DNA of 17,108 bases, taken from IMG/VR virus record IMGVR_UViG_2869976549_000007; one strand, given 5' to 3'. Below the pieces are notes generated by a model. The model had not been told where the DNA came from. It worked only from the letters and a program-made list of their open reading frames with translations, and made no database searches. A program made the translations under genes and the position numbers. This DNA comes from a virus. Its lineage: Duplodnaviria > Heunggongvirae > Uroviricota > Caudoviricetes. Positions 3,924-16,508 of this stretch are shown here, in pieces (the first letter of the stretch is position 1; every line of letters starts with the position of its first letter).

Positions 3924-5865
3924 CAGTTTTCAGCTGAAGGCGATCATCACTGCCGTGGATAAGGTATCGGCACCGCTGAAGGGAATGCAGCGCCAGCTGA
4001 AAGGTTTTAAAAAGGAGTTTGCCAGCCTGTTACTGGGCGCAGCGGGTGCCGGAACCGCAGTACTGGGGGCGCTGGCGCTCCCGGTCAAATCTGCCATTGC
4101 CCTTGAATCAAAAATGGCGGATGTCCGGAAAGTGGTGGATGGTCTGGATACGCCGGAAGCGTTTAAGGCAATGACGGAGCAGGTGCGCGACCTGTCAACA
4201 GAACTGCCCATGTCGGCGGAAGGTATCGCCGAAATTGTGGCGGCGGGTGGTCAGGCTGGTATCGCCCGTGACGAGCTGATGCAGTTTACTGACGATGCCG
4301 TGAAGATGGGCGTGGCCTTTGACACCACGGCAGAAGAATCCGGTCAGATGATGGCGCAGTGGCGCACTGCCTTTAAACTGACACAGGGAGAGGTGGCAGG
4401 GCTTGCGGATAAGATTAACTATCTTGGTAATACCGGTCCTGCAAGTGCGAAAAAGATTTCTGATGTTGTGACCCGTATTGGCCCTTTAGGCAGTGTTGCG
4501 GGTGTGGCCTCCGGAGAGATTGCCGCAATGGGGGCAACCATTGCCGGAATGGGGGTGGAGTCAGAAATTGCTGCGACGGGGATAAAGAATTTTATGTTGT
4601 CGCTGACAGCGAGGGATTCTGCCACCAAATCGCAGAAAAAAGTGCTCCGCTCGTTGCGCATTAGCCCGAAAAAACTGGCGGCGGATATGCAGAAAGACGC
4701 CCGCGGGGCCATGCTGCACGTACTGGATTCTCTGGCAAAAGTGCCGAAAGAAAAACAGGCTGCTGTGCTGAAAGCGCTGTTCGGGAAGGAATCCCTGGGG
4801 GCCATTGCGCCGCTGCTCACGAATCTGGATTTGTTGCGAACCAACTTTAATCGTGTGGCGGATGCGCAGCAGTATGGCGGCTCAATGCAGAAAGAATATG
4901 CCGCCCGTGCCGCGACGACAGAAAATCAGTTGTTGCTGCTGCAGAACCAGATCAATGCGATTTCTTCCACGCTGGGGGAAACCTTCCTGCCTTCACTCAA
5001 TGAAGGCATAAAAGAGATGAAGCCTTTTCTGGAAGAAGTGCGCACGTTTGTCAGAGAAAATCCTGAGGTCGTAAAAACCATCGCGAAAACTGGTGCGGCA
5101 TTACTGACGATGGGCGTGGCGATTGGCACATTGACACGCATAACAAAAATCATGGGTAGCGTGATGAATATGACGCCGGCAAAGGGATTAATTGCGCTTC
5201 TCGTCGGTGGTGCATATCTCATAATTGATAACTGGGAAACGGTCGGTCCGGTTGTGAAAAAAGTCTGGCAGGAGGTTGATCAGGTTGTCAGAGCAATGGG
5301 GGGATGGGAACAGGCAGTAAAAACAATAGCAACGGTTTCTGCCCTGTATATTGGTGTGAAGGCGGTGGCAAGTATTCGTGCGGCAACAGTCGCCCAGAAT
5401 CAATGGACAACGGCGGCAGGAAAAACAGGGCTGAAATTAAAGGGCCTCGGAAAGATCAGTCTGATTGGTGGATTGCTTGAACTGGGCATGATGGCGCAGG
5501 AGTTTGAAAAAGCACATCCCTGGCTTGTTAAAAATTTTGTGGCTGATGCACTGAACAGTGGATTTGGTCTGAATGATAAGTTCGACGAGTGGGGCAAACA
5601 GTTCCATGATTTTGTCTATGACATGACCGGATGGCAGATGCCACGTGGTGATGGGTATTTATCTCCCGATAAACGCTACACCCCGAATGTATCACTGGAA
5701 AGGAATCAGCTGTTAAGCCTTGCATCTTCACCGGCAACCCGCAGCGAACTTAAGGTGACGTTTGACAACGCGCCGCCTGGAATGCGCGTTATCGATTTGC
5801 CGAAAACAGGCGATCCCTTTATGAAAATCACCCATGATGTTGGGTATTCTCCATTTAAAAGGTGA
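3916..5865 (+). CDS. Tail tape measure protein (Mu gp42-like)
   Basis: 649 aa, directly downstream of the chaperone frameshift window. Ala/Gly-rich N-terminus and an internal hydrophobic segment (…GAALLTMGVAIGTL…GLIALLVGGAYLII…) are typical of tape-measure proteins. Confidence 0.8.
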   Translation: MADSFQLKAIITAVDKVSAPLKGMQRQLKGFKKEFASLLLGAAGAGTAVLGALALPVKSAIALESKMADVRKVVDGLDTPEAFKAMTEQVRDLSTELPMSAEGIAEIVAAGGQAGIARDELMQFTDDAVKMGVAFDTTAEESGQMMAQWRTAFKLTQGEVAGLADKINYLGNTGPASAKKISDVVTRIGPLGSVAGVASGEIAAMGATIAGMGVESEIAATGIKNFMLSLTARDSATKSQKKVLRSLRISPKKLAADMQKDARGAMLHVLDSLAKVPKEKQAAVLKALFGKESLGAIAPLLTNLDLLRTNFNRVADAQQYGGSMQKEYAARAATTENQLLLLQNQINAISSTLGETFLPSLNEGIKEMKPFLEEVRTFVRENPEVVKTIAKTGAALLTMGVAIGTLTRITKIMGSVMNMTPAKGLIALLVGGAYLIIDNWETVGPVVKKVWQEVDQVVRAMGGWEQAVKTIATVSALYIGVKAVASIRAATVAQNQWTTAAGKTGLKLKGLGKISLIGGLLELGMMAQEFEKAHPWLVKNFVADALNSGFGLNDKFDEWGKQFHDFVYDMTGWQMPRGDGYLSPDKRYTPNVSLERNQLLSLASSPATRSELKVTFDNAPPGMRVIDLPKTGDPFMKITHDVGYSPFKR

Positions 5866-5999
5866 GTTCTTTTTTTGTGGTGAAAGATGAGGCAAAATTA
5901 TCGCGTAACATGCTAACAATGGAGTTTGTTTTGTGATAAAGCCATTTTTAATGACGGTTGCAATATTAACCTCTTGCTGTGCTCAGGCGAAAATACTAA

Positions 6000-7195
<1,196 letters not shown>

Positions 7196-7209
7196 ATAGT
7201 GGAGACAGT

Positions 7210-8601
7210 ATGGACTTACCTTCTTTACCTTCTCTTTCTTCACTCTTTTCTGCATCTTCAGGTATCAATTGGCGCGATAATCTTTACGACGCTTCATTTC
7301 GTGGCGTTCCGTTTTCGGTGGAGAGCGACGAGGGTTCGTTCGGACGCCGCGTTCAGGTCCATGAATACCCAAACCGTGACAAACCGTACACGGAAGATCT
7401 CGGGCGTGCCACGCGACGGCTGACGATTAATGCGTATCTCGTTGGTGATGATTACGCAGAGCAGCGCGACAGGCTGATTACAGCGATTGAAACCGCCGGG
7501 CCGGGGACGCTGATCCATCCGCAGTTCGGTGAAATGCAGGGCTGTATTGACGGGCAGGTGACCGTTTCTCACTCCGGCACTGAAGGCCGTATGTGCCGGG
7601 TTTCATTTCAGTTTGTTGAGAGCGGGGAACTGTCATTTCCGGTCGCCGGAGCTGCAACCGCCAGAAAACTGGAGGAGTCGTCCGTATTCCTGGATGAGTT
7701 GATTGAAGACATGTTCGGCGATTTTGATCTCGCGGGAATACCGGACTTTATTCAGAACGATGTTATTGCCCGGACGACCGATATGCTGGGAACCGTTCAG
7801 ACAGCTTTCAAAATGGTTAATTCGGCTGTTTCTGCCGGAGCGAGACTACTGCAGGGCGATTTATCCGTCATTCTGATGCCGCCGTCGGTTGCCAGTGATT
7901 TTGTGCATACGTTGCAGGATACCTGGCGGGCCGGAACCCGGCTGGTGGATAACACACAGGATCTGGTGCAGTCCATAACGACAATGTCCGGCATTACGCT
8001 GGACCCAGGACTGGCACCGCGTGCGGTGTGGCCCACAGATTCCGCATCGGTTATCAGGCAAAAACAGCAGACAAACCTTGTGGCTGCTGTCATCCGGACG
8101 ACGGCAATCAGCGAAGCCACAAGGGCGGTCACTTCACTGCCACAACCCGGAAGCCTGGTGAAAAATCAGCAGGCGGTTGTGGCTGTTGGTGGTTCCACTG
8201 AACGTCAGTCCGATATTATTCACGTTTCTCATCCGGCACTTGACAGCGTGGCAGCCAGCACAGGACAGGATGAGAGAGCGCAACCACCCACGCGGGAAAA
8301 TCTCACCATCATACGCAAATCGCTGAACGCGGCGATTGAACAGGAGCTCAGGCGTACGGCGGATGACAGGCTGTTTTTTCAGCTGACGTCATTACGTACA
8401 GAACTGAACCGGGATATTCAGGCGCGTCTGGTTCAGACGGAGGAAACCGCAGAGCGAACGCCAGCGGAAGTTCTGCCTGCGCTTGTTCTGGCTGCGTCAT
8501 GGTACGACGATGCGTCCCGTGAAACTGATATCCTGGATCGAAATGCCATCTCTCATCCGGGCTTTGTTCCGGTCAGGGCATTAAGGGTACCCGTCAGATG
8601 A
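7210..8601 (+). CDS. DNA circularization protein N-like (Mu gpN/gp43-like)
   Basis: The ORF-track start at 7030 lies inside IS5. The first ATG after the IS5 right end is 7210 (MDLPSLPSLSSLF…) with GGAGA 6 nt upstream. Position after the tape-measure gene fits Mu gene order. Confidence 0.65.
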   Translation: MDLPSLPSLSSLFSASSGINWRDNLYDASFRGVPFSVESDEGSFGRRVQVHEYPNRDKPYTEDLGRATRRLTINAYLVGDDYAEQRDRLITAIETAGPGTLIHPQFGEMQGCIDGQVTVSHSGTEGRMCRVSFQFVESGELSFPVAGAATARKLEESSVFLDELIEDMFGDFDLAGIPDFIQNDVIARTTDMLGTVQTAFKMVNSAVSAGARLLQGDLSVILMPPSVASDFVHTLQDTWRAGTRLVDNTQDLVQSITTMSGITLDPGLAPRAVWPTDSASVIRQKQQTNLVAAVIRTTAISEATRAVTSLPQPGSLVKNQQAVVAVGGSTERQSDIIHVSHPALDSVAASTGQDERAQPPTRENLTIIRKSLNAAIEQELRRTADDRLFFQLTSLRTELNRDIQARLVQTEETAERTPAEVLPALVLAASWYDDASRETDILDRNAISHPGFVPVRALRVPVR

Positions 8602-9698
8602 ATGATACCGTTTTACTTCGGGTTTCCGGTCGCGAATGGGGCGGCTGGACATCCGTCCGTATCAGTGCGGGCATTAACCGTATTGCCCGGGATTTTAATG
8701 TTGCCATTACCACCCGCTGGCCCGGAAGCCGGGATTATCAACCCCGGATAAAAAATGGTGAGCTGGTTGAAGTGCTTATCGGGGATGAGCCTGTGCTCAC
8801 CGGATATGTGGAGGCACTACCGCTTCGTTATGACGCCAGCAGCGTCAGCATGGGAATTGTCGGGCGAAGCAAAACAGCCGATCTGGTTGACTGCTCTGCT
8901 TTGCCACTCCAGCAGAGCGGAAAAAACCTGCTCAGAATAGTCAGTGAACTGGCTGCGCCATTTGGCATCACCGTTGTTGATGCTGGCGTGCCGCAGACAG
9001 CGGTGATTGATGCCCAGCCGGAACACGGCGAAACCGTTGCCGATTGTCTTAACCGGTTACTGGGGCAGGTTCAGACGCTGGCTTATGACGATGAATGCGG
9101 GCGACTGGTTCTGGGAAAACCCGGAACAGGTAAAGCGGCGACGGCGCTGGTGCTGGTGCTGGTGCTGGTGCTGGTGCTGGGAGAGAATATTCTTTCCTGT
9201 GACACGGAAAGAAGCATCAGAGAGCGGTTTTCTGAATATCAGGTCAGTGGGCAGCGCCCGGGCAACGACGATGATTTTGGTGAGGCCACCATTGCCGCAA
9301 TACGTCAGACCATTCAGGACAGTGGCGTGACCCGTTATCGCCCTTTGTTGATTCAGCAGTCAGGCACAGCAACGACAGCAACCTGTAAGGCCCGTTGTGA
9401 ATTTGAAGCGCGCCAACGGGCTGCGCTTACCCGTGAGACAACATATACGGTTCAGGGCTGGCGGCAGGGCAGTGGCGCGTTATGGCGTCCGGGGTTATCT
9501 GTCATCGTTTTCGACCCGCTGAATAATTTTGATAATGATGAACTGGTGATCGCAGAAGTTACCTATAACCAGGACGACCGGGGCACGACGACTGAATTAC
9601 GGGTTGGCCCGGCAGATGCTTATCTCCCCGAGCCTGTTACCGCCAGGAAGAAAAAAATGTTGAGGAGGATTTCTGATGAACGGGTTTTCTCTTCGTAA
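8598..9698 (+). CDS. Baseplate hub protein (Mu gpP/gp44-like)
   Basis: 366 aa; its ATG overlaps the upstream stop (ATGA). Position matches Mu gene order. Contains an in-frame hexanucleotide repeat. Confidence 0.6.
   Translation: MNDTVLLRVSGREWGGWTSVRISAGINRIARDFNVAITTRWPGSRDYQPRIKNGELVEVLIGDEPVLTGYVEALPLRYDASSVSMGIVGRSKTADLVDCSALPLQQSGKNLLRIVSELAAPFGITVVDAGVPQTAVIDAQPEHGETVADCLNRLLGQVQTLAYDDECGRLVLGKPGTGKAATALVLVLVLVLVLGENILSCDTERSIRERFSEYQVSGQRPGNDDDFGEATIAAIRQTIQDSGVTRYRPLLIQQSGTATTATCKARCEFEARQRAALTRETTYTVQGWRQGSGALWRPGLSVIVFDPLNNFDNDELVIAEVTYNQDDRGTTTELRVGPADAYLPEPVTARKKKMLRRISDERVFSS
9146..9181 (+). repeat. Tandem hexanucleotide repeat (GCTGGT) x ~6 inside the baseplate hub CDS, encoding (LV)n
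   Basis: Direct reading: gctggtgctggtgctggtgctggtgctggtgctggg, translated in frame as ALVLVLVLVLVLGE. Confidence 0.9.
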
Positions 9699-10209
9699 TC
9701 TGATTTCCCGGGCTGTCATCACGGCGGTGGATTCCGCCAGAAAGTGTCAGTCTGTAGGGTTGAAAATGATAGCCGGAGATCAGAAACAACACGTTGAGCA
9801 CCTTGAACCTTATGGTTTTACATCTGCCGCACAGAACGGTGCTGAGGGCGTTGCTTTATTTCCGGCGGGCGATCGTTCTCATGGTGTGGTTGTGGTCGTG
9901 GCTGACAGACGTTACCGGCTGAAAGGACTGAAACGTGGGGAAGTGGCGCTTTATGACGATCTGGGACAGTCCGTTGTCCTGACCCGTTCCGGTATTGTGG
10001 TGGACGGGGCCGGGAAGGCCATAATTTTTAAAAACGCGCCTAAAGCGCGCTTTGAAATGCCAGTCGAATCCACCGCCGATATTACTGACAATTGCGACAG
10101 TGGCGGACTCAGCATGCAGCAAATGCGGCAGGCCTACAATGCCCACAAACATACCGAAAATGGTGATGGTGGCGGGATCACTGACACGCCGGATCAACCG
10201 ATGGGCTGA
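9676..10209 (+). CDS. Baseplate spike / assembly protein V-like (Mu gp45-like)
   Basis: 177 aa with a strong ribosome-binding site (GAGGAGG). The C-terminal motif …HKHTENGDGGGITDTP resembles the P2 gpV/Mu gp45 family (…HTHKHPGDSGGTTG…). Confidence 0.7.
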   Translation: MNGFSLRNLISRAVITAVDSARKCQSVGLKMIAGDQKQHVEHLEPYGFTSAAQNGAEGVALFPAGDRSHGVVVVVADRRYRLKGLKRGEVALYDDLGQSVVLTRSGIVVDGAGKAIIFKNAPKARFEMPVESTADITDNCDSGGLSMQQMRQAYNAHKHTENGDGGGITDTPDQPMG

Positions 10210-10214
10210 AAATC

Positions 10215-10625
10215 ATGATGATTAATGTTAACGGGCGACCCGTGTCGACCGGGGCTTCGATCGACCTTCTGACGCGTGCTGTGATTATTTCGCTTTTTAC
10301 ATGGCGGCGTGCCGGGCGTGATGATGCACCACGGATATTTGGATGGTGGGGGGATACCTGGCCTGCGGTTCAGAATGATCGCACGGGGTCGCGTTTGTAT
10401 CTGTTGCGACGCAGCAAGCTGACAAATAAAACCCCGCAGCTTGCCAGAGATTATGTCCGTGAGGCGCTGGCGTGGATGGTGGAGGATGGTGTTGCTTCCC
10501 GTCTTGATATTAACGCTGTCCGGACCGGGACAGACTCGCTGGCACTTGCCATTACCATTTACCAGCGTGACGGCAATATTCACAACATTATTTTTGATGA
10601 TATCTGGAGTGAACTGAATGGCTGA
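10215..10625 (+). CDS. Baseplate protein, Mu gp46-like
   Basis: 136-aa ORF between the spike and the baseplate J-like gene; overlaps the downstream start. Confidence 0.6.
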   Translation: MMINVNGRPVSTGASIDLLTRAVIISLFTWRRAGRDDAPRIFGWWGDTWPAVQNDRTGSRLYLLRRSKLTNKTPQLARDYVREALAWMVEDGVASRLDINAVRTGTDSLALAITIYQRDGNIHNIIFDDIWSELNG

Positions 10626-11226
10626 CAGTCAGTTTTATCGCCCCGGCCTCCCGCAACTTATTTCTATGATCCGGAGCGATTTATTAACCCGCTTTGAGCA
10701 GGATACGCTGCTTCGTCGTATGGATGCGGAAGTGTATGCCCGTGTACAGGCTGCAGCCGTACACACGTTGTACGGGTATATCGATTATCTTGCCAGAAAT
10801 CTGTTACCGGACGTGTGTGATGAAGACTGGCTGTACCGGCACGCCAGAATCAAACGCTGCCCGCGAAAAGAAGCGGTGGCAGCCCGGGGATTTGTGCGCT
10901 GGGATGGCGTAGAGGGGACGCCGGTATTGCCAGCGGGAACGCAGATCCAGCGTGATAATCAGGTGACCTTTACCACGACGGCGACGGTGACCGCAGCCGA
11001 TGGTCTTCTCCGGGTGCCTGTTGTGGCAGACGAACCGGGATCGGCGGGGAATACGGATGATGGTATTGCCATGCAACTGGGAACACCCGTCAGTGGTCTG
11101 CCGTCCACAGGGTACGCTGACACCATTACAGACGGTGAAGATATTGAAAATCTGGAAATATGGCGTGCCCGCGTTATGGAACGTTATTACTACATTCCAC
11201 AGGGGGGCGCAGGTAATGACTCCAAC

Positions 11227-11730
11227 TTATTGATAGTGTTTTATGTTCAGATAATGCCCGATGACTTTGTCATGCAGCTCCACCGATTTTGAGAACGACA
11301 GCGACTTCCGTCCCAGCCGTGCCAGGTGCTGCCTCAGATTCAGGTTATGCCGCTCAATTCGCTGCGTATATCGCTTGCTGATTACGTGCAGCTTTCCCTT
11401 CAGGCGGGATTCATACAGCGGCCAGCCATCCGTCATCCATATCACCACGTCAAAGGGTGACAGCAGGCTCATAAGACGCCCCAGCGTCGCCATAGTGCGT
11501 TCACCGAATACGTGCGCAACAACCGTCTTCCGGAGACTGTCATACGCGTAAAACAGCCAGCGCTGGCGCGATTTAGCCCCGACATAGCCCCACTGTTCGT
11601 CCATTTCCGCGCAGACGATGACGTCACTGCCCGGCTGTATGCGCGAGGTTACCGACTGCGGCCTGAGTTTTTTAAGTGACGTAAAATCGTGTTGAGGCCA
11701 ACGCCCATAATGCGTGCAGTTGCCCGGCAT
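11227..11730 (-). CDS. insB: IS1 InsB (expressed as InsAB' by frameshift)
   Basis: 167-aa minus-strand ORF overlapping insA. The A6C slippery motif (minus-strand TTAAAAAAC) lies near 11671..11681. Confidence 0.9.
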
Positions 11731-11924
11731 CCAACGCCATTCATGGCCATATCAATGATTTTCTGGTGCGTACCGGGTTGAGAAGCGGTGTAAGTGAACT
11801 GCAGTTGCCATGTTTTACGGCAGTGAGAGCAGAGATAGCGCTGATGTCCGGCAGTGCTTTTGCCGTTACGCACCACCCCGTCAGTAGCTGAACAGGAGGG
11901 ACAGCTGATAGAAACAGAAGCCAC
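11649..11924 (-). CDS. insA: IS1 InsA
   Basis: 91 aa, [43 protein letters not shown]…, matching IS1 InsA. Confidence 0.95.
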
Positions 11925-12476
11925 TGGAGCACCTCAAAAACACCATTATACACTAAATCAGTAAGTTGGCAGCATCACCGGGGGCGCAGACCCTGATTAT
12001 GTTATCTGGGCGAAAGAAGTTCAGGGTATTAACCGTGCATGGACTTTCAGACACTGGAAAGGCACTGGAACGGTTGGCGTGATGGTGGCGACAAACGATC
12101 CGGAACGCCCGGCCCCGGATGAAAGCGTGATTAACGCAGTCAGGGACCACATCCTTCCTCTGGCACCTGTTGCCGGAAGCGGATTGTATGTATTCGGTGC
12201 CACAGAAAAAGTCATCCCGATGACGATTGCATTATCGAAAGACACACCGCAGATCAGGACTGCAATAAAAGCAGAGCTGAATGCACTGATGTTACGGGAT
12301 GGTGTGCCAGAGGGGCGTATGTATCTGTCCAGAATCAGTGAGGCCATCAGTTTGTCTGCTGGTGAAGTGGCCCACCGGTTAATCGTCCCTTCATCGGATA
12401 TTGACCTGGGGGAGACCGAGCTTCCGGTGCTCGGCGAGATCACCTGGCAGGCTTATGACCCGGCAAGGAGTAAATA

Positions 12477-13067
12477 ATGGATTCGTTACAGGATGATTAT
12501 ACAAAGCTGCTGTACGGACTGATGCCGCCGGGGCCTGCATGGTCAGATACCGACGGTGTACTTGACGGTCTGGCACCATCGCTTGTGCGTGTTCACCAGC
12601 GGGCTGATGAACTGGTGATTGAAATCGATCCCGGTCAGTCCACAGAGCTGATTGAACGTTATGAAGAATTGTATGGTTTACCTGATTCCTGTTCCCCTGT
12701 CGGAACCCAGACATTACGCCAGCGTCAGCAACGTCTTGAAGCAAAAGCCAATGTGGCTGGTGGCATAAATGAGCAGTTCTTCCTGGATCAGCTTGAGGCG
12801 CTGGGATATACCGGCGTAACGATCGAACAGTTCCAGCACTTGGATGCAAGCCCCGATCCGGAATGGGGAGATCGCTGGCGTTATTTCTGGCGTGTGACGT
12901 TGCCGATGGATGCCGGTGCTCAGTGGCAGACATGCACGGACGCCTGCAACACACCGATCCGGACGTGGGGGGATACGGTTGCGGAGTGCGTGATTAATAA
13001 ATTATGTCCGTCACACACCGTCGTTTTATTTTCCTATCCAGATGAGGATGAAGATGCACAGGATTGA
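12477..13067 (+). CDS. Tail/baseplate protein, Mu gp48-like (DUF2313/YmfQ-like)
   Basis: 196 aa; its start overlaps the baseplate J stop (TAATGG). Position between baseplate J and the tail fibre fits Mu gene order. Confidence 0.65.
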   Translation: MDSLQDDYTKLLYGLMPPGPAWSDTDGVLDGLAPSLVRVHQRADELVIEIDPGQSTELIERYEELYGLPDSCSPVGTQTLRQRQQRLEAKANVAGGINEQFFLDQLEALGYTGVTIEQFQHLDASPDPEWGDRWRYFWRVTLPMDAGAQWQTCTDACNTPIRTWGDTVAECVINKLCPSHTVVLFSYPDEDEDAQD

Positions 13068-14094
13068 TACGCTGACTGCGGTAAAAGATAAGTTTGGTCC
13101 GGGTAAGAACGGATTTACTGACGGAAATCTTCGCACAGGACGTCTTGCTACCTGGCTGAACAGTGCCATGTGGAATGCCATTCAGGAGGAAATCTGTGGT
13201 GTCATTGAGAAGGCCGGGATAGAACTGAATAAAGAAGAACACGACCAGCTATATAAGGCTATATTATTGCTGGTGGGCGGTGCAATTAACGAAGAGGCAT
13301 TGCTGATAAAAAATAACCTTTCGGATGTGGAAGACAGGGATGAGGCTGTTGAAAACCTCGGATTAAAACCCACGGTGGATAAGGCAAAAAATGCCGTTCA
13401 GCGTGATGGCGACACCATGACCGGAGAGCTGAAAATCCGTGGTGTTAATGCGCTGAGGATTTTCAACGAAGCTTTTGGCCTGATTTTTCGTCGTTCGGAA
13501 GAGTGCCTGCACCTTATTCCCACCAGTGAAGGTCAGGGGGAAAATGGCGATATTGGTCCCCTGCGCCCGTTCACCATTAATCTGCGGACGGGTGAAATAT
13601 CCATGTCGCATAAAGTGTCTGTTGGCGGTGGTTCGCAGGTCAATGGTGCGCTGGGTATCGGCGTTCAGAACGCCCTGGGGGGGAATTCAATTGTTCTTGG
13701 TGATAATGACACCGGATTCAAACAGAATGGTGATGGCCTGCTGGATGTTTATGCCAATAGCGTGCATGTGTTGCGTTTTCAGAGTGGCAGTATCCAGAGT
13801 AATAAAGCTGTAAACGTTACAGGACGGGTAACACCGTCAGACTACGGAAACTTTGATGCCCGTTACCAGCAGCGAAATGGTGGCGTGCAGGATGTGCGGT
13901 ATGGTTATGAAATGTATTACACCCCCGGCAGTAACACCGTTTCGTGGACATTTCGCTCACCTTCGGGACACGGGCTGTCAGGGATATCGATATCGGATAC
14001 CGGCCGTAACTCAGCGGATAACGTCAACGGCGTGTATTACCGACCGCTGCAAAAACTGATTAATGGCACCTGGTATAACGTAGCGAGTATTTAA
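13042..14094 (+). CDS. Tail fibre protein (Mu S-like N-terminus)
   Basis: The N-terminal motif …HRIDTLTAVKDKFGPGKNGFTDGN…WLNSAMWNAIQEEICGVIEKAGIEL… resembles conserved tail-fibre N-termini. Start is ambiguous (in-frame ATGs at 13042, 13048, 13054). Followed by a tfa-like gene. Confidence 0.7.
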   Translation: MRMKMHRIDTLTAVKDKFGPGKNGFTDGNLRTGRLATWLNSAMWNAIQEEICGVIEKAGIELNKEEHDQLYKAILLLVGGAINEEALLIKNNLSDVEDRDEAVENLGLKPTVDKAKNAVQRDGDTMTGELKIRGVNALRIFNEAFGLIFRRSEECLHLIPTSEGQGENGDIGPLRPFTINLRTGEISMSHKVSVGGGSQVNGALGIGVQNALGGNSIVLGDNDTGFKQNGDGLLDVYANSVHVLRFQSGSIQSNKAVNVTGRVTPSDYGNFDARYQQRNGGVQDVRYGYEMYYTPGSNTVSWTFRSPSGHGLSGISISDTGRNSADNVNGVYYRPLQKLINGTWYNVASI

Positions 14095-14096
14095 CA

Positions 14097-14642
14097 ATGT
14101 TGCATTTAAAAAATATTACGGCAGGTAATCCGAAAACCGCGGAATAATATCAGCTGACAAAACAGTATGATGTCACCTGGCTTTTTTCGGAAGACGGCAA
14201 AAACTGGTATGAAGAACAGAAGAACTTTGCCAGTGACACCATAAAAATGGTTTACACCGGAGACGGGCGCGTGGTGTGGGTCGGTAAGGATGTGACAGGC
14301 ATTGAACCCCGTAACGCCAGTGTTATTGAAGTTCCTGATATTACCGCCAACCGCCGCATTACCGCGCCGGGTTACTGGTTTTACCGCAATGATGAATTTG
14401 TCTTTGACTACAGACTCAAAGCGGAAGATGAGCGTGATGCCCTTCTGGCTCAGGTCAGTGCCCGGACAGGGGAATGGGAAGAAGACCTGCTGCTGGGGCT
14501 AATCAGCGACGAAGACCGGGAAAAACTGAAAGCGTACCGTATTTACGCGAAATCGCTGCAGGCGATGGATTTCAGCACCATCACTGATAAATCCTCATAT
14601 AACGCCATTGAATGGTCCGTCTCTCCGGAAGGTTCTTCCTGA
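14097..14642 (+). pseudogene. Tail fibre assembly protein (Tfa/Mu U-like) with in-frame ochre codon at 14145..14147
   Basis: The ATG at 14097 gives MLHLKNITAGNPKTAE, then TAA, then in the same frame YQLTKQYDVTWLFSEDGKNWYEEQKNF… continuing to 14642. The Tfa-like N-terminus (MxHLKNITAGNPKT…) therefore lies upstream of the stop. First in-frame ATG after the stop is 14247. Confidence 0.6.
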
Positions 14643-14665
14643 TTTAATTTATCGCGAGAAAAACT

Positions 14666-15934
14666 ATGTCTGTAGTGATATCAGGTGCGCTGACTGATGG
14701 CGCAGGCATCCCCATGTCCGGATGCCAGATTATTCTGAAATCCCGTGTAAACATCTCAGAAGTGGTGATGCGTACCAGGGCTGATGTAGTGACCGGAAAT
14801 AACGGTGAATATTCGTTTGAGGCACAGGTCGGAAAATATTGCGTGTATCTGAAACGGGACTGGCGCGACGAGTACTGTGTTGGCGACATTGCTGTATACG
14901 ACGACTCAAAGCCCGGCACGCTGAATGACTTTCTGATTGCTCCTGATGAGGGCGACCTGAAACCGGATGTCGTCAAACGCTTTGAGGAAATGGTGGCGCA
15001 GGCGCAGCAGAGCGCCGGGGCCGCAGCCGGAAACGCACAGCAGACGGCGCAGGATGTGGCGGCAGCCGCAGGTTATGCCCGCGCAGCAGAGCAGGCCAAA
15101 AATGACATTGATGCTGCGCTGACCGGCACTCTGAAAACGGCTAACCATCTGTCTGAAATCGCAGCAGCAGGCGAAAAGGCACAACAGAAGTCCCGGGATA
15201 ATCTGGGGCTGAAAAGTGCGGCCACGATGGAAGCACAGAGCGACATTTACGACCGGACAAAAGGCCGTCTGGCGATACCCGGCGCATTCGGCTTTGGGTG
15301 TGCTTTTCTGCCTGAAGATGTTATCCGTTTTGACACTAAGAGTGATTTCCTGGCCTGGGTAAGGAATGCGCTGCCAGGTGAATATTCCGTTGCTGGCCCC
15401 TACGACATCATCATACCCGACACACGGTTTGAAGGGGTGCTCAGCATCCGGTGGACTGATGCACGCCCTGAGACAACAGAACCGAGGTACAGAGCCAAAT
15501 CCCTTACTTTTTACGGCATTAACGGCCCCATTTATCACACCCGCTACTGCTACTGGCCCATATCCAGACTGACTGGCTGGGTGAAAATAAATATAACCAC
15601 AGAAGATATTATTTACAGAATCGTGGCGAGCTCTGTCTGCAACAGATGGGGAGACCCTGACATTGGCGGGCTGATTATTGCTGCGTACCAGGGAGAAGCT
15701 GACGGTGATAAAGTCATCAGACTTGTCAGGGGGCAGTCATACAGAGGCTCACGACTGGGACCGGTGGGGATTTCAGTGCCCAGTACTCCCACCGGAACGT
15801 ATATAGCATCCCCACAATTTTTCATTACGGGATGTTCAGAGCATTCATTACCGGGGTCATATAGCGCCCTGTCCGGGGTGCCGGATGCTCATGTCTCTGG
15901 CGCAATGCCCGGGCTTTTTATTCGCACATCGTGA
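14666..15934 (+). CDS. Second tail fibre-like protein: lambda Stf-type N-terminal domain, Ala/Gln-rich linker, unrecognised C-terminal domain
   Basis: The N-terminus MSVVISGALTDGAGIPMSGCQIILKSR…YDDSKPGTLNDFL closely parallels the lambda Stf N-terminus (…TDGAGKPVQNCTIQLKARR…VYEDSQPGTLNDFL). An Ala/Gln-rich segment follows. The C-terminal ~220 aa has several Cys and no motif I recognise. Confidence 0.6.
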   Translation: MSVVISGALTDGAGIPMSGCQIILKSRVNISEVVMRTRADVVTGNNGEYSFEAQVGKYCVYLKRDWRDEYCVGDIAVYDDSKPGTLNDFLIAPDEGDLKPDVVKRFEEMVAQAQQSAGAAAGNAQQTAQDVAAAAGYARAAEQAKNDIDAALTGTLKTANHLSEIAAAGEKAQQKSRDNLGLKSAATMEAQSDIYDRTKGRLAIPGAFGFGCAFLPEDVIRFDTKSDFLAWVRNALPGEYSVAGPYDIIIPDTRFEGVLSIRWTDARPETTEPRYRAKSLTFYGINGPIYHTRYCYWPISRLTGWVKINITTEDIIYRIVASSVCNRWGDPDIGGLIIAAYQGEADGDKVIRLVRGQSYRGSRLGPVGISVPSTPTGTYIASPQFFITGCSEHSLPGSYSALSGVPDAHVSGAMPGLFIRTS

Positions 15935-15944
15935 GGAATGCACC

Positions 15945-16508
15945 GTGGAAATTAAAAAAATCATTAATCCCCGTTATACCGAAAGTGGCGCAGTAGACTG
16001 TGACGTTTTTTTTGACGACAGGGACCAGGCAGTCCCCTACACAGCCACCGCTGATGATGTCGCACCGACGGGTCAGCGAATCTGGCAGGAACTGCAAAGT
16101 GGCAAATGGGGTGAGATAGCCCCATTCACTGTGACACCAGAAATGCTGGAAGCGGCCAGAGAGGCCAGACGTCAGGAAATTGAAGCATGGCGCACAGAAC
16201 AGGAGGCGAAGCCGTTCACGTTTGAATGGAATGGTCGTATCTGGAATGCTGGCCCCGACTCACTGGGCCGCCTGTCCCCGGTAGTCATGCTGGCAAAATC
16301 TGTCACAGCACAAACGCATATGGCGTGGGGTGATGCCGATAATCAGCAGGTGAAACTGTCGATGCCGGAACTGGAAGAACTGGCGGCAGCAATGGTGCAG
16401 GCGCAGGTCGATCGCAACGATGAGATTTATCGCCGTCAGCGTGAAATGAAAGAGGAGCTGAGTGGTCTGGAGGATTTGGGAACAATTAGAGCGTTTGATG
16501 TTACGTAA
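15945..16508 (+). CDS. Putative tail fibre chaperone / assembly protein (DUF4376-like)
   Basis: A GTG start at 15945 with GAGGAA 7 nt upstream, just after the upstream TGA (15932..15934). The ORF-track ATG at 15885 would overlap the upstream gene. The 187-aa product has a C-terminal pattern (…FEWNGRIWNAGPDSLGRL…WGDADNQQVKLSMPELEELAAAMV…) resembling fibre-associated chaperones. Confidence 0.45.
   Translation: MEIKKIINPRYTESGAVDCDVFFDDRDQAVPYTATADDVAPTGQRIWQELQSGKWGEIAPFTVTPEMLEAAREARRQEIEAWRTEQEAKPFTFEWNGRIWNAGPDSLGRLSPVVMLAKSVTAQTHMAWGDADNQQVKLSMPELEELAAAMVQAQVDRNDEIYRRQREMKEELSGLEDLGTIRAFDVT

Follow-up and report, generated by a model that had tools for sequence, protein, structure and literature searches.

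The GCTGGT repeat in the baseplate hub gene of a defective phiP27-like prophage is the Shigella sonnei typing locus SS13

A baseplate hub gene in a stretch of phage-derived DNA contains a perfect tandem array of the hexanucleotide GCTGGT, and the question raised by this locus is whether the array is a working, length-variable part of a tail protein or the product of a recent slippage expansion in a gene that is no longer under selection. The whole stretch that was analysed, referred to here as the window, is 17,108 nucleotides long and belongs to the IMG/VR virus record IMGVR_UViG_2869976549_000007 (Caudoviricetes). The array and its immediate surroundings in the window consist of the following features:

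7210–8601, + strand: gene for DNA circularisation (Mu gp43-like), the immediate upstream neighbour of the hub gene
8598–9698, + strand: Mu gp44/GpP-type baseplate hub gene, 366 aa, with a C-terminus changed by a frameshift
9073–9092, + strand: forward-primer site of SS13, AGACGCTGGCTTATGACGAT, an exact match to the primer in PMC3420240 Table 1
9146–9180, + strand: GCTGGT tandem array, VNTR SS13, allele "6", encoding (LV)5-L
9676–10209, + strand: Mu gp45-like baseplate assembly (spike) gene, with a 23-nt overlap with the frameshifted hub ORF

The array was detected by Tandem Repeats Finder as 5.8 copies of GCTGGT at positions 9146–9180 (period 6, 100% matches, score 70). A preliminary description of the window, made from its letters, had reported a perfect in-frame repeat in the hub gene at 9146–9181; the repeat and its start are confirmed, while the end was placed one base too far, base 9181 being a G that breaks the unit. 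There are 29 consecutive period-6 matches in the array, compared to a longest period-6 run of 12 among 500 mononucleotide shuffles of the window and 10 among 500 triplet shuffles, and the array is therefore far beyond what could arise by chance. The reading frame across the array is CTG GTG, in frame with the ORF at 8598–9698 (+ strand), and the translation reads ...GKAATA-LVLVLVLVLV-LGENIL..., that is, A-(LV)5-L-G, which bears out the Leu-Val run of the preliminary description. Each unit gained or lost changes the length by 6 nt, so that every allele is automatically in frame.

The identification of the gene as a baseplate hub is well founded. The window protein contains all four Pfam domains of the GpP/gp44 hub (PF21683 at residues 5–91, PF22255 at 93–173, PF22630 at 210–266 and PF21929 at 259–345), each exceeding its gathering cut-off, and it matches Mu gp44 (PDB 1WRU) with E = 5.7e-43 and the MuSo2 hub (PDB 3CDD) with E = 7.1e-43. 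For the comparison of folds we used P0002, an E. coli homologue 97–98% identical to the window protein, as a stand-in; its predicted fold matches 3CDD, 1WRU and 9KI1 with TM values of 0.76–0.82 (Foldseek). Together, the domains, the 1WRU match and the fold of P0002 show that the hub label of the preliminary description was right. The order of the genes is that of a Mu-like tail module (tape measure, DNA circularisation, hub, gp45, gp46, J/gp47, gp48). Among phages the nearest is phiP27, an Stx2e phage with 96.6% DNA identity, whose orthologue P27p49 (L49) has 351 aa and is annotated as "baseplate hub". The window thus resembles Mu gp44 (gene P; 1WRU/9KI1) and phiP27 L49 in the four hub domains, the fold and the gene order. 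It differs from both in an 8-residue (LV)4 insertion in the LVLGENIL strand, in the frameshifted C-terminus and in belonging to a prophage incapable of making particles.

The sequence of the window points to Shigella sonnei. Over 7,101 bases, positions 5598–12698 show 100% identity with CP022672.1, a chromosome of S. sonnei, a look-up of the window protein by its exact sequence leads to entries named Shigella sonnei, and the window's allele was found in none of 5,426 complete E. coli genomes. SS13 is reportedly a locus of the S. sonnei MLVA26 and 7-locus scheme of Liang et al. 2007 (J Clin Microbiol 45:3574). The forward primer for this locus is given as AGACGCTGGCTTATGACGAT in Table 1 of PMC3420240, where Liang et al. 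2007 are credited; in the window this 20-mer is found once, without a mismatch and 54 nt upstream of the array, and chance alone would give 0 matches. The forward primers of the other six MLVA loci (SS1, SS3, SS6, SS9, SS10 and SS11) have no match in the window, and neither GCTGGT nor its complement ACCAGC is present in the S. flexneri MLVA paper. In a global survey of 1,672 isolates SS13 was described as having a 6-bp unit and 5 alleles, clonal group A having 2–6 repeats, group B either 0 or 2, and group C 2–4 (PMC3310650). It is the least variable of seven loci (D = 0.42) and served as a low-variability "trunk" marker dividing biotype a from biotype g strains (PMC3420240), and the MLVA scheme that includes it has been in use in PMC3420240, PMC3310650 and PMC4873039. 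The primer site, the 6-bp unit and the published range of copy numbers all agree with the array, and from these three points we identify the array as the catalogued S. sonnei typing locus SS13. The two share the same primer site, 6-bp unit, five alleles and species, and nothing substantive sets them apart; the feature has been known as SS13, and used in typing, since 2007. The SS13 MLVA papers PMC3420240 and PMC3310650 do not mention the gene context. What is worked out here for SS13 is its phiP27-like hub-gene context, its ancestral proto-repeat and the order of events at the locus.

Copy-number variation within S. sonnei was surveyed by exact-sequence look-ups of the S. sonnei protein built with 0 to 8 LV units. 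Proteins with (LV)1, (LV)2, (LV)3, (LV)4 and (LV)5, corresponding to 1.8, 2.8, 3.8, 4.8 and 5.8 units, occur on 187, 819, 898, 250 and 78 contigs, respectively, counts that are confounded by clonal sampling and do not represent allele frequencies. Proteins with (LV)0, (LV)6, (LV)7 and (LV)8 were absent from the same look-ups. The natural S. sonnei members of the protein cluster include one with (LV)2 (P0010), two with (LV)3 (P0006 and P0012), two with (LV)4 (P0013 and P0014) and the window protein itself with (LV)5 (P0001). The window allele is the longest and the rarest in this five-step series, and it is also the largest known SS13 allele. Once the fractions are rounded up, the recovered series of 1.8–5.8 units agrees with the published 2–6 repeats. 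Both the series recovered here and the published one (PMC3310650) substantiate the expectation in the preliminary description that the array should change in copy number while keeping the reading frame.

Outside S. sonnei the site is unexpanded. At the array, phiP27 and three prophages of E. coli are shorter than the window by exactly 24 bases, or four units, in a DNA alignment, and in all 50 of 50 full-length copies from complete E. coli genomes the corresponding span is at most 327 bases, compared to 351 in the window. A flank-anchored pattern that allowed 1 to 6 units was matched by 29 IMG/VR contigs and 6 metagenome contigs, and 34 of these 35 contigs (28 of 29 from IMG/VR and 6 of 6 from metagenomes) contain 1.8 units in the 7-base form. 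The single IMG/VR contig with 2.8 units (L016) is S. sonnei-like, being 99.6% identical to the window and having the same IS1 insertion and A7 run (see below). The pattern had no match in a collection with one genome per species, where the representative probably lacks the prophage. All non-sonnei homologues are unexpanded.

The unexpanded site occurs among the homologous loci (L001–L039) in three synonymous versions, ACTGGTGCTGG, GCTGGTTCTGG and GCTGGTGCTGG (ACTGGTG-CTGG, GCTGGTT-CTGG and GCTGGTG-CTGG). The last of these is alone in forming a perfect 11-nt proto-repeat and is the version of the S. sonnei background; expansion is seen on this perfect version only, and in S. sonnei only. At the protein level, the residues T-A-L-V-L-G-x-N-I of the strand TALVLGENIL are invariant or nearly so in 38 representative Enterobacterales homologues with 57–98% identity, none of which (0 of 38) has an insertion at TALVLGxNI, and the aligned position in Mu gp44 reads LVLGENLL.

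The state of the prophage was assessed by mapping the colinearity of the window with phiP27, using the phiP27 gene table. Damage is visible at the following positions:

363–1624, + strand: IS3-family element with 100-aa and 272-aa ORFs (HTH_Tnp_1 and rve domains), which we take to be IS600-like
6000–7195, + strand: complete IS5 between the tape-measure and DNA-circularisation genes, encoding a 326-aa protein with DDE_Tnp_1 and DUF772 domains
9651–9657, + strand: A7 homopolymer in the hub gene, which is A8 in phiP27, in most E. coli copies and in most homologues
10618–11211, + strand: N-terminal fragment of the baseplate J gene, truncated by IS1, with the rest restarting at 11980
11212–11979, − strand: IS1, 768 bp, within the baseplate J/gp47 gene (DDE_Tnp_IS1, E = 5.8e-78)

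Where the IS3-family element stands, phiP27 has about 3.5 kb of head genes, the major capsid gene included. The IS5 copy has the terminal inverted repeats GGAAGGTGCGAA(C/T)AAG, and the IS1 copy is flanked by a 9-bp target duplication, GGGGGCGCA, which can be read directly at 11203–11211 and 11980–11988. Loss of one A from the A8 run changes the hub C-terminus from ...KKKNVEEDF to ...KKKMLRRISDERVFSS, each followed by a stop codon, with the last ~10 codons shifted; the A7 run is common to all S. sonnei alleles. In short-read assemblies of S. sonnei the locus lies on contigs of about 4.3 kb (mostly 2.8–4.5 kb) terminating at the IS copies on either side, which is explained by the IS5 at 6000–7195 and the IS1 at 11212 in combination. 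The S. sonnei prophage is defective and cannot make particles. A Mu gp44/GpP hub gene would be expected to be intact, functional and part of a complete tail module. The window copy is not, and the A7 frameshift, the (LV)4 insertion in an invariant strand, the IS1-split J gene and the lost head genes make it a decayed member of that family.

Several minor features of the prophage were also noted. The right end of the IS3-family element (1609–1624, TTGCCAGTACACCTCA) is identical to bases 1–16 of the 20-base SS1 MLVA forward primer, and from this match the SS1 primer seems to bind the terminus of a different copy of the same element. Two short tandem repeats, TTACCTTCT in two copies and a 12-nt unit in 2.1 copies, occupy positions 7216–7258 at the very start of the DNA-circularisation gene, right after the end of IS5. 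The A7 run is also found in E. coli ETEC1746 (L004) on the GCTGGTT proto-repeat background, and its presence on a different background suggests recurrent homopolymer slippage at the poly-A run. The tail-fibre region at 14040–16478 has 75–80% identity to phiP27, compared to 93–96% across the rest of the tail module, which fits the usual mosaic exchange of fibre genes.

The order of events can be read from the unexpanded S. sonnei copies. Two IMG/VR contigs with 1.8 units (L022 and L007) are 99.4% identical to the window and possess both the A7 run and the same IS1 junction in gene J, and the IS1 insertion is found in S. sonnei contigs with 1.8, 2.8 and 5.8 units. As the IS1 insertion and the frameshift are common to unexpanded and expanded S. 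sonnei alleles, both predate the expansion from 1.8 to 5.8 units.

These results lead us to regard it as highly probable that the array is the SS13 microsatellite, generated by neutral slippage in the hub gene of a dead phiP27-like prophage. The seed would have been the 11-nt proto-repeat GCTGGTGCTGG (1.8 units), which codes for the conserved hub strand A-LVL-G. The phiP27-like prophage was first inactivated in S. sonnei by the IS1 insertion in gene J and the A8-to-A7 frameshift in the hub gene, and the window's copy additionally has IS5 upstream and the IS600-like element where the head genes would be. With selection on the hub protein gone, gains of whole units would be tolerated and would segregate as the alleles of 1.8–5.8 units, the array growing and shrinking through replication slippage (slipped-strand mispairing) and the repeat presumably having no function of its own. 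Replication slippage is the most likely mutational process given the whole-unit stepwise alleles, their unimodal spread around 2.8–3.8 units and the lack of expansion on the imperfect proto-repeats. That such gains are tolerated only because selection on the S. sonnei copy has ceased is suggested by the near-invariance of the strand and by the lack of expansion in prophages without IS disruption, and the copy number of SS13 is accordingly likely to be neutral. Of the two readings that the preliminary description had offered, the one supported is the recent expansion in a gene released from selection, and the support comes from the lost head genes, the IS1 in J, the frameshifted hub and the unexpanded non-sonnei homologues.

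The other reading, a length-variable linker, finds no support. In its functional form it holds that the array is an adaptive segment of a working tail or tailocin hub, where the copy number tunes baseplate geometry or host range. All alleles remain in frame, the array lies between the second (93–173) and third (210–266) Pfam domains, and the sheath, tube, tape-measure, hub and fibre genes persist as ORFs, as such a role would lead one to expect. However, with J split by IS1, the head genes lost and the hub frameshifted near its end, no particle or tailocin should assemble, and expanded copies are found in neither the intact E. coli prophages nor phiP27. The repeat, moreover, duplicates part of the near-invariant TALVLGENIL, which shows no length variation in the 38 homologues and aligns to the LVLGENLL of Mu gp44. 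For P0002, the E. coli homologue, AlphaFold predicts a confident beta-strand at this segment: the mean pLDDT is about 91 over residues 181–190, and strands at 170–173 (LVLG), 184–186 (LVL) and 190–194 (ILSCD) look like a hairpin. In the model of the window allele the pLDDT is under 50 across residues 187–259 and those strands are gone, although domain 3 is poorly modelled in both monomers, which leaves only the local drop in confidence usable, and AlphaFold is not a predictor of stability, so that the drop is a weak indicator of destabilisation. The models hint at a location of the repeat within a conserved, structured strand rather than a flexible linker, and we consider a functional linker very unlikely.

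There is a similarly slim chance that the hub ORF is still expressed and that the (LV)n strand or the GCTGGTG array itself is selectable, in which case the copy number would track lineage fitness or local recombination.

A still less probable explanation appeals to the resemblance of the array to Chi. The Chi octamer is GCTGGTGG, and GCTGGTG constitutes its first 7 of 8 bases; the cluster of five overlapping 7/8 sites in the array might attenuate RecBCD or stimulate local recombination and thereby drive instability. GCTGGTG does occur five times in the array (9146–9176) and 12 times in the window compared to 3.0 expected, and four true Chi sites are present in the window on the same (+) strand as the array, exact copies of GCTGGTGG being located at 2615, 7941, 12756 and 13269 where 0.75 would be expected. 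Yet no copy in the array is a full Chi, the eighth base being C, or the sequence continuing as G-G-A at the last copy. A Chi hotspot is defined by the exact octamer and the array holds only GCTGGTGC. The resemblance follows trivially from CTG-GTG, the two commonest E. coli codons, and the stepwise single-unit alleles are explained by slippage alone. Searching the literature for the related chi* sequence yielded nothing but unrelated primer matches.

The least probable of the explanations weighed here is that the length of the array is an error of sequencing or assembly, for instance through the collapse or inflation of a short repeat, a concern that the preliminary description had itself raised. 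Homopolymers and short repeats are classic error sites, and the hub gene also has the A7 versus A8 difference. Against this, the 5.8-unit allele and the A7 run recur together in the complete chromosome CP022672.1, and the allele is present in many independent NCBI and Logan assemblies, with the protein found in 156 index blocks and on 78 contigs. The 35-bp array is also shorter than any modern read, and PCR fragment sizing gives alleles of up to 6 repeats (PMC3310650). The recurrence in a closed genome and in independent assemblies, together with the published PCR sizing, excludes an artefact for practical purposes. A phase-variation switch was rejected, as the 6-nt unit keeps the frame and the gene lies in a defective prophage.

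Comparisons with known repeat systems place the SS13 microsatellite among epidemiological markers. The 6-bp MLVA loci of E. coli O157 and Salmonella have short in-frame units, change by stepwise slippage and are used as epidemiological markers, and SS13 is like them in all three respects. It is unlike them in being short (at most 6 units) and slow, and in having arisen after the pseudogenisation of its host gene. The contingency loci of Neisseria and Haemophilus likewise consist of a perfect short tandem repeat in a coding region that mutates by slippage. There the repeat shifts the frame or the promoter spacing of a functional gene, whereas the unit of SS13 is a multiple of three, there is no frame switching and the prophage is dead.

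Little new biology attaches to the variability of the array, which has served in the typing of S. sonnei since 2007 and is documented in thousands of isolates. The practical use of the repeat is as a slowly evolving strain-typing marker, and its copy number is readable from genome assemblies, since the locus lies on a characteristic contig, about 4.3 kb long, with IS5 and IS1 at its ends. SS13 also provides an example of the birth of a microsatellite, in which an 11-nt proto-repeat frozen in functional phages has expanded in the disabled S. sonnei copy.

A different length variant was observed at the same place in E. coli. The 337-aa variant P0008 is missing 14 residues (KPGTGKAATALVLG), equivalent to approximately 9108–9150 in the window. 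Flanking the loop are two direct repeats that code for LVLG, CTGGTTCTGGGA and CTGGTGCTGGGA, and the loss has the look of a deletion between them; P0008 would then represent a second type of length change mediated by repeats at the hub repeat site.
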